Origin: Escherichia phage P762
DNA: 38,954 bases
Sequence record: MW876471
Strand: one strand, 5' to 3'
The notes under the pieces are model-generated. The model was not told the DNA's origin, did not search any database, and saw only the letters and a program-made list of their open reading frames with translations. Both the position numbers and the translations under genes were made by a program. Below, one piece after another: positions 3,019-34,588 of this stretch; the stretch's first letter is position 1, and every line of letters starts with the position of its first letter.

Positions 3019-3041
3019 AGTCCCTATAGTGATAGTTAAGG
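3019..3041 (-). promoter_or_regulatory. phage RNAP promoter (phi13 position)
   Basis: minus-strand CTTAACTATCACTATAGGGA (plus strand tccctatagtgatagttaag), one of 11 copies of the same motif. Confidence 0.75.
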
Positions 3042-28643: not shown

Positions 28644-28666
28644 CTTCCCTATAGTGATAGTTAAGT
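28644..28666 (-). promoter_or_regulatory. phage RNAP promoter (phiOR position, after the terminase gene)
   Basis: plus-strand ttccctatagtgatagttaag. Confidence 0.75.
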
Positions 28667-28760: not shown

Positions 28761-30524
28761 CTAGTGGAACGTAACGTATGACCCTAGTCCTAGCTCGTCG
28801 TCAGTATCGTGAGTTACCCGGACCCCATTGTCCCAGAACTCAGTGTGGATGGACTCGAAGCCTTTCCGTGGGTTCTCCATCTGTTCCTCCAGCCACTCCT
28901 CAGTGACTTCACGTTCGCCTTTGTTGGCATCCTTAGCCATAGACTCAACGAAGAACTGCACACCGATAGCCAGCGCATCAAGTCGGTCATCGTGTGCCAA
29001 TGCTCCACGTTCACGAGAGATACGGGTCATCTGGTAGAAGAGAGAGTAGATAGGGTTACGAACACCATCCTTGTCAGAGGCTGTCTGGTAGTCTTGGACG
29101 ATAGCAGCAGCGTTGACGATAAGTCTGTGAGACCCCATGATAGGCTCCAGAACGTCACAGATGCGGAGTTCTTTCTGACCCTTACTCTTCACTTCAGTTA
29201 CAGCCGCAGGATGTATACGTGCCGCTACAGGCTTGAATAGCTCAAGGTACATACCATCACCGAAGTTACCCTCAATGACGTATTCGTTGACCTTCCACTT
29301 ACGACCAATCTTAGCCAAGGCTTCCAGCGTAGAGTCTTCATAACCACCACGCATACCACCAACTTCCATAGCGAAGATGTAACCGTTTAGCTGATACAGT
29401 ACCGCATAACCAGTTTCATCCTTACCACGACCACTAGGGTCAATGACCAGAATCTTCTGGGTGTACGAACTGAAGGCAGAACCTACAGTCTGATACGTGT
29501 GGTATGAGTCACCCATGAGTCCAACGTTAGGGACGTCCTCGCGCTTGTTCTGAGGGTTTGGCAGCCATTGGTAGACCATTGGGCTGGACGCTGGGTCCAA
29601 GTCGGCTACGATAAGGTCACGGAGCTTCAGAGGGTACTTCTCAGCATCACTCAGGTTCGGGTTAAGCATGAATTGTAGAGCGAAGCCAGCTTTACCATAG
29701 GACAGCTCACGTTCCTTCAGGTCCGTATCATCAAATCGTACTTCGTCTGTCGGACGCCAGTAGAAGGACTCAGGGTCCTCTTCCAGTTCTGCCTGAAGCA
29801 TAGGAGCCAGACGGTCGCCGTAAGACTGCCAGTCCTTCCTGTCGCGTGGATAACGAGCTGGCCAGATAGTAGTGGTATACCCACGACCCTCCAACTCACG
29901 ATACAGGGTCATCTCGTTCTGAGGAGTGCCCAGATAGATGATTGTACCTCCCGGCTTCAGGATAGCGTCGAACTCTTTCACAAGCTCTGACAGTCGGTCT
30001 CGCGCAGCCTGAGTAGCAGAGTTGTTTGGAACCTCCACGTCATCAGCAATAAGGATGTCAGCACGACTACCAGTCAACTGACCAGTGATGCCAACGGACT
30101 TAACCGAAGGTGAGTGGTCCGGCTTTGCTGGTCCAACGTCGAAGCTGATAACCGCATCCCTCTGTCCCTGCTTAGGTTTGAGTTCCTGAAGCTGAGGCAT
30201 GAGGTCGATGATTCGCTTGATGAAGATGGAGTTAGCATCTGCTCGTTCCTTTGAGGCCGACACAATCATGAACTTCAAGTCTGGGTTATTCCATAGCTTC
30301 CAGACCACGAAGGCACACGTAATGAAGGACTTCCCGATACCACGGAACGCCTGTAGGATGAAACGCCTGTTGTCCCCAGCCGATAGTTTCTTCGCCATGT
30401 CAATCTGGCAGCGAGTTGGTACTGGGAGTGACAGAGCTTTCCACAGGACGAACAGGAAGAACACGAAGTCTGCCTTCATACGGGCAGTCATTAGCGCCTG
30501 ACGCGCCACTAAGTCTTTACTCAA
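28761..30524 (-). CDS. gp19: terminase large subunit gp19
   Basis: 587 aa; [125 protein letters not shown] blocks match T7 gp19. Confidence 0.97.
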
Positions 30525-30536
30525 TGCGTCACCTCC

Positions 30537-31328
30537 TTATACGTTAAAGATTCGGTCTACACGTACTGTAAGCGATGATAACGTTAGGTCTTCTGACCCA
30601 GTAACGATGATACCAAGCATGATGCCAGTTTCTACAAACGGGTCGTCCGAATCAGCGATGTAGCTGTGGATAGCTGATTCACGGATGGTGAAGAGCTTCT
30701 GGTCAGATGTATCCGTAACAGACGATAAGGTCGTATTATCTGGGCGACGAAGCTGCACTCTCCATTTATGAGACGTTTCTGTAGGGAATTCACCAGCGAA
30801 TCGAACTACGAAGTTTACACCACTTAGCCCCTCTTTAGCTGGGAATATCATCTTTCCGTCTGAGATAGTCACAACACCGCTGTTAACTCCCCTAACTAAA
30901 GGTAGAGTCATTAGGTTAGTGAACTGTCCAGCCGTACACACTTGAGTCCCTGACCAATTGAATGTGTCTAGAGAATACTCAGCGTGAGAGACAGGACGCG
31001 ATTCTCGATAGGTATACTCCACCTTAACCAGCCCGATTCCACTATCATCCAGCTTGGCGACCTTAAGAATTAGGAAACCATCTTCAGTAGCCCCATCAAC
31101 TTCCAGACGCACACTTTCTGTCTGTAAGGGCCAGCCTCCACCATCGGAGAAATTACCAGTAGTAGACGTACCGTCGCTTAGTGTAATTTTAGTAGACTCA
31201 GCGTTAGCTGGGACCTTCACGTATATTGTTCCAGCCAATAAGTGACCGGATGGGTTCTTCAATCCAGTTGGTGCTCCAGTCACAAAGTGCCACACCACGT
31301 CAGTTTTCAAAGTAATGATGTTACCCAT
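30537..31328 (-). CDS. hypothetical protein (263 aa) inserted between Rz/Rz1 and large terminase
   Basis: AAGGAG SD; start overlaps Rz stop; beta-rich, Gly/Thr/Ser/Val-rich; T7 has no gene here. Confidence 0.8.
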   Translation of the reverse strand: MGNIITLKTDVVWHFVTGAPTGLKNPSGHLLAGTIYVKVPANAESTKITLSDGTSTTGNFSDGGGWPLQTESVRLEVDGATEDGFLILKVAKLDDSGIGLVKVEYTYRESRPVSHAEYSLDTFNWSGTQVCTAGQFTNLMTLPLVRGVNSGVVTISDGKMIFPAKEGLSGVNFVVRFAGEFPTETSHKWRVQLRRPDNTTLSSVTDTSDQKLFTIRESAIHSYIADSDDPFVETGIMLGIIVTGSEDLTLSSLTVRVDRIFNV

Positions 31329-31773
31329 TGTCGTTCTCCTTGCCTTGTTGAAGTTTGCGAATAGTATCCTGTAGTGCTTTAATCCAAGCGTCCCCTTTTA
31401 GTCCGATGGCGATAAGACGTTTAGCATCTCGTTCGTCAAGTTCGGCGTAACCATCAATGATGCATCGACCGTCACTTTGCGTGGCTCCACTCGTAGGTTT
31501 GACTCGGATGCGCAGCCGCTTATTGTCAGACTGAAGGTCAGCAATAATCCTATCAGTGCTGCCTTCCAGCGAGGACATTTCGTCCTGAAACCGTTTGGAC
31601 ACTTTGTTGACTTCAGCTTGGACAGCAAGCCTTGTATCTTCCGATGCCTTAAGATTCGAGGTGTATTCTGCATTGACCTTAGCCTCCCACTTATTGTTAG
31701 CGGTGTGGTAGCCCCCAGCAAACATCACTGCTGCGAGTAACCACGGAGCCGCTCTCTTTAGAAATTCGAGCAT
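31321..31773 (-). CDS. gp18.5: Rz-like i-spanin (gp18.5)
   Basis: 150 aa, N-terminal TM segment then coiled-coil periplasmic domain; position after small terminase. Confidence 0.8.
   Translation of the reverse strand: MLEFLKRAAPWLLAAVMFAGGYHTANNKWEAKVNAEYTSNLKASEDTRLAVQAEVNKVSKRFQDEMSSLEGSTDRIIADLQSDNKRLRIRVKPTSGATQSDGRCIIDGYAELDERDAKRLIAIGLKGDAWIKALQDTIRKLQQGKENDNG
31398..31560 (-). CDS. Rz1-like o-spanin embedded in Rz in another frame (gp18.7), start uncertain
   Basis: embedded frame encodes ..ALIGLLLTFSLTISGCASES..: lipoprotein signal with lipobox-like I-S-G-C; no in-frame ATG nearby. Confidence 0.45.
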
Positions 31774-32381: not shown

Positions 32382-34520
32382 TTAATCATTCTCAGTATTA
32401 TACATCAATACAACCGGACCTGTATACGTTGCCGTAGATGCCAGGTTAGTCATGTTGTAAGGCCGCATTCTAACCTGATTGGTACTAATGAGGCGGGCCT
32501 TAAGTAGCCATGTATCATCATTTGTGTTTGCTGATGTCTCTTGAATAATTACAGAGGTTGCAGGTTGAAAATGGTCTGGTATGTTTCTGGTTACCACTCT
32601 AGCTGTGTCTGTACTTGTTAGAGTAAAGAACTCCCGCCCTGATGTAGATATTGCTGTACAGTTCTCTGTATAGTTATTCCTAATATCTGGCCTACTTGTG
32701 CGACCCTCCGCTAAAGTCTTCATCTTAATAACACTAGTATTCATAGCAGTTCCTGTCGTGTTACGGAACCTGCACTCAGTAACCTTCACCTGATATGGGT
32801 TAGATATCAGATTAATAGCCACCCCATGCGGAGGCACTAACCAGTTACAAGCATTAATCGTAAAGCGTGCACCATCACCATTTGATTCAATAAGACATCC
32901 ATCAAAATAACAATTAGAAAACTGGTCAGCATTAGACATGATAACAACACGACCCTTAGTACTATCCGTATCCTGATCTGGATAGAAGTGACAGTTACTA
33001 AATGCGTTAGCACCTTTACGCAAAATCATAACGTCTTTGTACTGGGAACCGATGATAATATCGGAGAAGTTATTATCATAGCAGTCAATGTCTAAACCTA
33101 CACCCTCTGTAACATGGGAAGGGAACGGGTAACGCCAGTCTGGTTGCTGGAATATATGAGTTTTACCCATATTCAACTCATGAGGTGTAGACCCATTTGG
33201 TTGCATTTTTACCCCATGCTGCAAATACCTAGTTAACAATCCACCCCATACGGTTACTTTTAAGAAATCACCGGTAATACGAATAGAACTTGCTGCCTTC
33301 CAGTTAGCATCAATATTTGGGTTAAAAACAACAATATTTTCAATTGGTCGTATACCATTAACCTTACGAAAATCCAGTACAGCGTCCGTATTAGGGAAAG
33401 AACCAATAGCGATGAGTGAAGGGTTCATCACAGCAAAGTTAAGGCAGTCATCAATAGTAAATGAGCGAGATACATAGTAGGCACCTTGGCTCATATCAAA
33501 AACAGCACCCCCAAGGTTAAACATGTTTGGGTCTTCTCGGCCTGTAGGATATGCGGTCTTACGGTTTCTTGCAATTACACTATCTCTCCAAAGAGCTAAT
33601 GCATCCGAACTGTCGAAGGTAGCTACATTGGGTTTGGCTCCATAGTTCCTTGGATCGTCAACAGAATATGCTGATAGATAGCCAACGCACACCCAATCAT
33701 CATCTGGCGATGAGTTCGGTGGTACAGTTATCGTTCCAGATATTGGAGAGTAATACATGTTATCCAGTGGGTTCAAAAGTGCAGATTCATTAGCTGTCGC
33801 TGAACCTCCAGTTAAAAACGTAACACCAGATATTTTTTTATATTCAAGTGCCATAAAATATGACTCAGCCCACTGCCTTGCAGAGGCATCACCAACGCTA
33901 ACCCACGCACCTAATCCAATCCCGCCGGAAGTTTCAGGAGTTGAACCAGCAGGAACGTTCTTTGGAAGCGTACCATCCCAGCGGTAATAAGCACCATCCT
34001 CTTCCCATAGCAGCACCTCGTTCCATGTTATAACGTTGAAGCCTTTCTCGAAGGAGCGGCGGGTAATATAGCTAATTCGACCAGATGCCTTGATACTCTC
34101 AGCGATTCGTCGTGCTTCATCCTCGCTATCCTTAGCGTTGCCAGCAGAGTTACCAGCAGCATCGGCATATTCCTTCGCTAAGTCAACAGTTTGGTCTCGA
34201 CCTTCTTCTGAAATATGGATAGCCTGAAGCTCTGCATTGGTCAGGTCACTAGCTGTCAACACTGATCCATTCCTGAAGTCTACCACTAAGTCAGTTCCAG
34301 TCTGACGGTGAATACGAACGATGTCAAAACCTGATTGGTCAACCAACATCTCAATCATCGTTGGATTAAGGAATCTGTAATCTCTACCAACTTCCAGTAC
34401 ACGGTTCAGGGTAGGGTTAGAGCTATTCACCAGCGTAACAACAACAAACGTTCTTGCTAGGTAGTCGAACTCAATCCTGTACTGAGTGTTTCCTGAAGGG
34501 AATTGTGTAATCGTGGACAT
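32382..34520 (-). CDS. gp17: tail fibre/tailspike gp17: T7-type N-terminal adaptor plus unrelated beta-helix-like, probably enzymatic, C-terminal domain
   Basis: N-terminal ~150 aa ([31 protein letters not shown]) match T7 gp17; the remaining ~560 aa are unrelated to T7 fibre, AT-richer, with [16 protein letters not shown]-type repeats. Confidence 0.9.
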
Positions 34521-34565: not shown

Positions 34566-34588
34566 GTTTCCTATAGTGATAGTTTAGT
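34566..34588 (-). promoter_or_regulatory. phage RNAP promoter (phi17 position)
   Basis: plus-strand tttcctatagtgatagtttag. Confidence 0.8.

Follow-up and report, generated by a model that had tools for sequence, protein, structure and literature searches.

A putative knob-tipped surface protein encoded between the spanin and large terminase genes of a few T7-like phages

Phages of the T7 group are the textbook minimal podoviruses, thought to have one receptor-binding protein and undecorated capsids, and to our knowledge they are not known to carry an accessory surface knob such as the one proposed here. Comparable distal knobs are those of the Sf6 tail needle (gp9; 3rwn), of the PRD1 vertex spike P5 (1yq5), and of BclA/C1q/TNF-type proteins, in which a globular C-terminal trimer is joined to a collagen stalk. 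Optional surface proteins include phi29 gp8.5, Hoc, and gp45 of Shigella phage B2 (Ithacavirus), a 99-residue "head fiber protein" that was identified by cryo-EM and mass spectrometry as a homotrimeric capsid decoration (PMC11654681).

The locus described here lies in Escherichia phage P762, in a stretch of 38,954 nucleotides which we analyzed as a whole and refer to as the window. Judging from its modelled structure, the encoded protein would work like the distal knobs of Sf6 gp9, PRD1 P5, and the collagen-knob proteins of the BclA/C1q type. The Sf6 and P5 knobs are 9-13% identical to it, with no sequence-level relationship. The P5 N-terminal vertex-binding domain is missing, as is the Sf6/P22-type gp26-like needle coiled coil, the N-terminal half of the window protein being predicted as all-beta. 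Kinship with BclA, C1q, and TNF is also at the level of the fold, and no G-X-Y runs (PF01391 collagen) occur in the window protein. The resemblance to B2 gp45, phi29 gp8.5, and Hoc would be that of one optional surface protein to another, by analogy, since it lacks their anchors; by sequence, the window protein falls into none of the knob, head-fibre, or decoration families named here. B2 gp46 is closer, as its C-terminal knob belongs to the same family (about 30% identity) and it is likewise a small product of late expression whose gene follows those for lysis. However, the anchor of gp46 is a 47-residue module of gp45, whereas that of the window protein would be an unrelated 117-residue beta-sandwich, and the capsid location was shown for gp45 only, not for gp46. 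Within Autographiviridae, the products of genes 001 and 051 of Klebsiella phage FBKp16 display the knob and a modular anchor-plus-tip design, but they use a "TGQR" anchor and are encoded at the genome end after the large terminase gene (TerL), not between the spanin gene (Rz) and TerL. Gp045 of Yersinia phage Rambo and gp44 of E. coli phage Tarrare share both the two-domain architecture and the Rz-TerL slot at 17-26% identity; Tarrare differs in having an extra, longer paralogue, gp45, apparently with a coiled coil. The orthologues, gp18.8 of Escherichia phage CLB_P1 and ORF 0060 of Providencia phage EPr2, have the same slot and the same two domains, and neither has been characterised. The window protein is a putative member of an uncharacterised knob-tipped surface-protein family with a T7-like-specific anchor domain and a fixed genomic slot.

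The window holds a T7-like genome of the genus Kayfunavirus, 92-95% identical at the DNA level to phages of the K1F group over the conserved parts. The entire genome is inverted, which is why the ORF is found on the minus strand. On that strand the genes follow in the order tailspike (32382-34520), holin, small terminase, Rz, the 263-codon ORF, and TerL (Table 1). An earlier note, made from the sequence alone, had placed a 263-aa ORF between the spanin gene and the large terminase gene, and the Pfam matches of both neighbours agree with this placement. The AAGGAG Shine-Dalgarno sequence and the start codon overlapping the Rz stop that it described could also be read on the minus strand, where the sequence around the start is CAAGGAGAACGACAATGGGTAA (AAGGAG, spacer, ATG). 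The overlap of start and stop points to translational coupling of Rz and the ORF. The downstream junction with TerL, TAAGGAGGTGACGCATTGA, recurs unchanged in contig L008, a close relative; in CLB_P1 the bases around the stop differ, and GAGGTGA (the Shine-Dalgarno core), ATTGAG, and TTG are kept. TerL apparently starts with this TTG (30524-30522), ahead of which lies a very strong Shine-Dalgarno sequence, TAAGGAGGTGA.

A pattern search of the window found no promoter-like core on the minus strand between the site ahead of the tailspike gene, at 34566, and position 28656. The next core, CACTATAGG, comes after TerL (28644-28656). With no core between the tailspike gene and the end of TerL, the ORF belongs to the late transcript of genes 17-19. 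Cores of the CACTATAGG type were seen nine times on the minus strand, at 3019, 7569, 8566, 11387, 20692, 22342, 25884, 28644, and 34566. With one further match on the plus strand, ten were found against 3.5 expected, and they are consistent with a K1F/SP6-like promoter specificity.

Table 1. Coordinates of the gene, its signals, and its neighbours in the window, and of associated ORFs in related contigs
Feature	Position	Strand	Basis and remarks
Complete CDS, 263 codons plus TAA, ATG start	30537..31328	-	ORF list; counterpart of CLB_P1 gene 18.8
N-terminal domain, residues 1-117; proposed virion anchor	30978..31328	-	
C-terminal domain, residues 118-263; proposed trimerising, ligand-binding tip	30540..30977	-	
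Shine-Dalgarno sequence AAGGAG	31336..31341	-	7-nt spacer to ATG 31328-31326; read on the sequence
ATGGGTAA, ORF start codon overlapping the Rz stop	31321..31328	-	8-nt overlap; Rz TAA at 31323-31321
TAAGGAGGT, ORF stop joined to the TerL Shine-Dalgarno sequence	30531..30539	-	TAA at 30539-30537 is its first triplet
Upstream neighbour, Rz-like i-spanin (gene 18.5)	31321..31773	-	Pfam Phage_lysis; annotation of relatives
Downstream neighbour, terminase large subunit (gene 19)	28761..30524	-	Pfam Terminase-T7_RNaseH-like, E 6e-38
Phage-RNAP promoter-like core CACTATAGGAAAC, ahead of the tailspike gene	34566..34578	-	Nearest such site upstream of the ORF
phrog_25621 ORFs, function unknown	L013:7625-7999, L014:7627-8001, L015:7655-7999		

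The ORF is not only present in the ORF list but also shows a dN/dS of 0.093 against CLB_P1 at a dS of 0.85, and its two domains taken separately give 0.091 and 0.092. Values this low in both halves indicate a true gene under strong purifying selection and not a chance ORF. Threonine (11.4%), valine (9.9%), glycine (9.5%), and serine (9.1%) make up 40% of the product and its predicted structure is all-beta, in line with the earlier description of a beta-rich protein dominated by these residues. It is predicted to be soluble, as neither a signal peptide nor a lipobox or transmembrane segment was recognised. The AT shift that had been claimed relative to the flanking genes was likewise found, with a GC content of 46.5% and a GC3 of 43.0%, against 51.7% and 56.9% in TerL and 49.1% and 48.7% in Rz; the GC content of the whole window is 50.0%. 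In its AT richness the gene is similar to the tailspike module, which is exchanged horizontally; the tailspike has a GC3 of 37%, and its distal part is very AT-rich (GC about 40%). The window tailspike combines a T7 gp17-type N-terminus with a Tail_spike_N domain and gave no GDSL match at E <= 0.001. Meanwhile, the 716-aa tailspike of contig L008 displayed Pfam matches to GDSL-lipase (SGNH esterase), which suggests that it is deacetylating.

The gene is rare. Among 50,697 phage records, the full-length form was restricted to CLB_P1 (two records; 87% amino acid identity, same position, labelled "putative protease") and EPr2 (47% identity, same slot, annotated from an internal start). Intact ORFs were found in the window, in these two phages, and in three metagenomic clusters. 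In contig L008, the nearest metagenomic relative at 97% amino acid identity, one nucleotide is deleted from the A-run TTTGAAAACT at about codon 8 (L008:5884-6010 versus window 31300-31345), so that the gene caller began at Met37; the deletion may have arisen in the assembly, or it may be a true frameshift that inactivates the gene. Phage Bas105 carries an in-frame, internally deleted copy (L003:1002-1424) in which residues 1 to about 41 are fused to residues from about 163 to 263. Since Bas105 is viable, the gene is dispensable, and this, together with its rarity, supports the earlier view of an accessory gene in the late operon. Unlike in T7, which according to the earlier note has no gene here, the slot is usually filled in Kayfunavirus, as most members, for example Baskent_phicoli_1 and Bas105, have a 56-aa ORF there (L003:1437-1607 in Bas105). 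Because Bas105 holds both this ORF and the deleted copy, they cannot be mutually exclusive occupants of precisely one site.

More distant relatives showed that the slot is shared beyond the genus. Profile hits included proteins of 260-290 residues whose N-termini align with that of the ORF product, W13, G28, G33, and G99 being invariant, and when these were used as queries they led to Rambo gene 045 and Tarrare gene 44 (labelled "putative hydrolase"). Both are two-domain homologues from Teseptimavirus with Rz and TerL as their immediate neighbours, and each turned up only once in the 50,697 phage records. Two metagenomic members, P0166 and P0109, have the same two domains and are flanked by Rz and TerL fragments. 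These four slot homologues are 17-26% identical to the window protein. Altogether, the synteny comparison that the earlier note had proposed showed that at least seven T7-like lineages have such a protein between Rz and TerL, with identities of 17-47%. Scans of IMG/VR with the window protein, P0122, and P0139 recovered no relatives, and tblastn with the N-terminal domain alone yielded no more than the Kayfunavirus copies, the remainder being noise at E > 0.1. From the publications on Rambo and EPr2 we obtained no information on the slot gene (a term search of the EPr2 paper gave zero matches), and we found no proteomics of carrier phages, the Rambo paper making no mention of mass spectrometry.

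The description of the gene as an orphan did not survive these searches, as its C-terminal domain belongs to a widespread family and two-domain homologues exist in Rambo, Tarrare, and two metagenomic contigs. The idea of a moron-type acquisition was upheld in part: it fits the AT shift, but divergent homologues in the same slot of another genus argue for an old, sporadically retained occupant and not for a recent moron. As a sole history, a recent moron from an unrelated phage was rejected on the basis of these 17-26% identical homologues. The distribution suggests that the occupant is older than the split of Kayfunavirus and Teseptimavirus, or that it has moved repeatedly between homologous slots.

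A second slot gene was observed in Tarrare (gene 45, L020:5856-6968) and in contig L022 (L022:953-2137), encoding proteins of 370 and 394 aa. Their N-termini (TDW...G.GL..GHIYFRY) and C-termini can be aligned, if only weakly, to the two family domains (hhalign E values of 1e-3 and 5e-3, versus 0.075 and 0.4 in cross-domain controls), and a coiled-coil-like stretch of about 100 residues lies between the aligned ends. Neither protein had a Pfam or PHROG match. This is suggestive only of a longer fibre on the same anchor.

The C-terminal 146 residues of the ORF product matched phrog_17779, a family of unknown function, over residues 117-262 (E 1.6e-21). The match spans about 145 residues and includes the W..G, FPA, R..G, W..Q.RRP, and DPF..G motifs of the family. 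A group of arginines in this domain (R176, R194, R195, R216, R256, R259) is conserved as well. Short proteins that share 30-35% identity with the domain occur in N4-like phages (Ithacavirus, Gamaleyavirus), in epsilon15-like phages and prophages, and in Chaseviridae of Aeromonas, and an exhaustive profile search gathered 192 clusters. The earlier statement that the protein falls into no family therefore holds for Pfam, NCBIfam, and PDB sequences but not for PHROGs or the profile search; neither the single protein nor the family profile matched anything in Pfam, NCBIfam, PADLOC, or PDB sequence searches. In 168 of the 172 retrieved family proteins, which range from 61 to 904 residues, the knob forms the extreme C-terminus, as in a fibre tip, and the window protein follows this arrangement. 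The parts upstream of it are collagen G-X-Y repeats, Phage_fiber_rpt, a GDSL esterase, or N-termini that are short and particular to a lineage. Four or more G-X-Y repeats occur in 39 of the 172 (14 by a stricter count N-terminal of the knob), along with Pfam Collagen matches, and from the collagen stalks of these homologues we infer that the knob forms homotrimers. In several myovirus-like contigs, a conserved ORF of 114-124 aa (phrog_25621; Table 1) always precedes the collagen-knob gene with a start/stop overlap, and its product may be a dedicated chaperone or partner of the collagen-knob protein.

An AlphaFold2 model built on the family alignment was confident for residues 118-263 (pLDDT 78-94) and all-beta, and displayed a compact antiparallel jelly roll of about 130-150 residues that can be superposed on TNF, C1q, or BclA. 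The Foldseek search of such a model, which had been suggested in the earlier note, assigned this part of the protein to the TNF/C1q-like knob fold. Against viral models, Foldseek matched Sf6-type knobs, C1q-domain proteins, and tail-fibre proteins, and the closest structural analogues include the Sf6 needle knob, cyanophage tail fibres, TM4 gp23, and the receptor-binding protein (RBP) of lactococcal phage 1358; secreted bacterial proteins such as Chlamydia Pgp3 and a Photorhabdus lectin also share the TNF-like fold. Sequence identity to these matches is 6-14% and no PDB chain was matched by sequence, so the kinship with the TNF, C1q, and Sf6 knobs is at the fold level only.

Residues 1-117 were modelled with lower confidence (pLDDT about 67) as a beta-sandwich of seven to eight strands, and their structural matches were generic (Z <= 6.3). 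This domain, with its conserved W13, G28, G33, and G99, was found in T7-like phages only. The Phage_T7_tail domain (PF03906) is absent from the ORF product (Pfam, E <= 10), while the gp17 of the window itself does match it; absent as well are the N4-like anchor MAYSD...GG...QVLAAKD..ELP and the PF11133 head-fibre tip. We also considered whether the domain is a fused version of the small ORFs that precede collagen-knob genes (Bbp19, head-fibre-like, phrog_25621), and rejected this, as it showed no similarity to them.

Evidence on where such knobs are attached comes from other phages. In B2, the gene of the capsid protein gp45 (L024:2456-2755) lies directly upstream of that of the knob homologue gp46 (L024:2833-3468). 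Residues 1-47 of gp46 are common to gp45 (PDB 9d82_J, E 1.3e-7), and while the rest of gp45 is a head-fibre tip of the phi29 and crAss type, gp46 has the TNF-like knob instead. The two proteins thus appear to be one anchor with alternative tips. The shared N-terminus is not mentioned in the B2 structure paper, gp46 is absent from its virion mass-spectrometry table, and its supplement holds no per-protein mass-spectrometry list (PMC11654681). The MAYSD...GG...QVLAAKD..ELP anchor was found in N4-like homologues and their paralogues. FBKp16, a member of Molineuxvirinae, displays a similar pattern: gene 001 (L027:13-729) encodes a knob (118 bits against the family profile), and gene 051 (L027:43474-44010), which adjoins it across the record ends, shares its "MALS.TGQR...INQ..SGK" N-terminal module but bears a Hoc-like Ig domain as its tip. 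The TGQR anchor also occurs in metagenomic family members P0044, P0051, P0055, P0064, and P0083, and one PHROG family joins it to a phi29-type tip. The PHROGs name of the TGQR anchor family, "acetyl-CoA acetyltransferase", looks like a misannotation.

Genomic context varies as well. The knob homologue of epsilon15-like prophages belongs to the head module, with portal/Bbp19 on one side and scaffold/major capsid protein on the other. Baseplate and tail-fibre genes are the neighbours of the homologues in myovirus-like contigs and Chaseviridae, where one of them follows an ORF with a tail-fibre assembly chaperone motif. The occurrence in both head and tail modules suggests that the knob is a portable distal tip, with the N-terminal part deciding the docking place. 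In podoviruses, the available links point to the head.

Among the readings that the earlier note had offered, a virion-associated protein serving as a second receptor-binding or decoration protein is the one best supported by the fold and the family architecture, and it remains putative. We put the probability that the ORF product is a virion-surface knob, with the head favoured over the tail, at roughly 0.5. Attachment to the tail is an unlikely variant, in which the N-terminal domains of a trimer would dock on gp11/gp12 or on the N-terminal part of gp17, so that a second receptor-binding protein broadens or strengthens host recognition as in the branched receptor-binding systems of other podoviruses. 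The tail-tip and receptor-binding knobs among the closest fold analogues (Sf6, cyanophage, TM4 gp23, 1358 RBP) speak for it, as do the homologues near baseplate and tail-fibre genes, the position of the gene within the 17-19 block, and the Tail_spike_N domain on Kayfunavirus fibres. However, the ORF product lacks the Phage_T7_tail anchor, all six gp17 sites of the T7 tail are already occupied, and the B2 and FBKp16 paralogues point to the head. The fibres of the carriers weigh in the same direction, as they are unrelated beyond the T7 N-terminal domain: Kayfunaviruses have tailspikes with Tail_spike_N, which is absent from Rambo and Tarrare, while the fibres of Rambo are of the T7 type and those of Tarrare of the T4 gp34/gp37 type. 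As the same slot is used in at least seven lineages with unrelated distal fibres, the partner is likelier to be the capsid or the tail core than a distal fibre. Docking on a special tail-fibre domain was considered and weakened, because the carriers share no fibre domain beyond Phage_T7_tail.

The product might instead be no part of the virion, an option to which we give a low probability. As a soluble, lectin-like trimer that is made late and set free when the cell lyses, it could cover receptors on debris or neighbouring cells, act in exclusion, or assist lysis. The direct coupling of the ORF to the spanin gene is compatible with such a function, and so are the knob gene that follows the lysis cassette in N4-like phages, the absence of B2 gp46 from the listed virion proteins, and the TNF-like folds of secreted bacterial proteins (Chlamydia Pgp3, Photorhabdus lectin). 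On the other hand, a signal peptide, lipobox, or transmembrane segment is lacking, no PADLOC match was obtained, the homologue in epsilon15-like prophages lies in the head module, and the family is built like fibres, with a C-terminal tip, collagen or coiled-coil stalks, and anchors in common with a verified decoration protein. The exclusion factor suggested in the earlier note likewise gained no support (no PADLOC match at E <= 1, no signal peptide or transmembrane segment). An enzyme, as implied by the labels "putative protease" (CLB_P1, Salmonella phage S5, a Salmonella prophage) and "putative hydrolase" (Tarrare), is highly improbable: the beta-sandwiches of both domains are non-catalytic, searches of Pfam, NCBIfam, and PHROGs gave no peptidase or hydrolase family, and the match to CspB is weak, covers 94 residues, and stands amid generic beta-sandwich matches. 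The protease label probably spread from the neighbouring prohead-protease genes of epsilon15-like prophages. There is equally little to recommend a decaying remnant without present function, for which one could cite the rarity of the gene, the internal deletion in Bas105, and the single-nucleotide deletion in contig L008; these are countered by the dN/dS of 0.09 at a dS of 0.85, the intact ORFs in the window and elsewhere (CLB_P1, EPr2, three metagenomic clusters), and the conserved translation signals.

Based on these findings, we postulate that the knob gene is a dispensable late structural accessory, built as a miniature phage fibre. The ORF would be transcribed with genes 17-19 from a late promoter and its translation coupled to Rz and TerL, so that the product would be made alongside the packaging and lysis proteins, during particle assembly. 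Its N-terminal beta-sandwich (residues 1-117) would serve to attach it to some conserved component of the virion, while trimerisation and the binding of a surface ligand, probably a glycan, would fall to the C-terminal knob (residues 118-263). On the particle surface the product may be exposed as a knob of the head-fibre or decoration type, which we favour, or as a side appendage of the tail, and could thereby give the phage an additional means of adhering, with low specificity, to surfaces of the host or the environment. Probably, it is an optional adhesin of the virion surface which a few T7-like phages keep at the same spot of the genome. A more tentative extension, possible but not one on which we would insist, is that T7-, SP6-, N4-, and epsilon15-like podoviruses share an unrecognised optional modular head-fibre system, of which the window gene is the version of the T7 group. 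Such a head fibre would have a capsid anchor particular to the lineage, in some cases a stalk of collagen or coiled coil, and a tip that can be exchanged, which may be a TNF-like knob, a Hoc-like Ig domain, or one of the phi29 type.

The fold and likely role of the ORF product are conventional. They are now given to the unannotated PHROG 17779 family, which comprises 192 clusters and has no Pfam model, and the "protease" and "hydrolase" labels are corrected. As the shared anchor links the knob family to the solved B2 gp45, the question of virion location is directly testable. If our reading is true, an optional surface knob whose gene occupies a constant hot spot would add a new determinant of host interaction or adhesion. 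Since CLB_P1 and EPr2 are therapeutic candidates, it would matter for host-range prediction and phage therapy, and it could also offer a natural display site. Should the head-fibre system exist, P762 would be the first member of Studiervirinae to display a lectin knob on its capsid, and this knob would let it adhere to glycans of the host or of mucosa without involvement of the tail.
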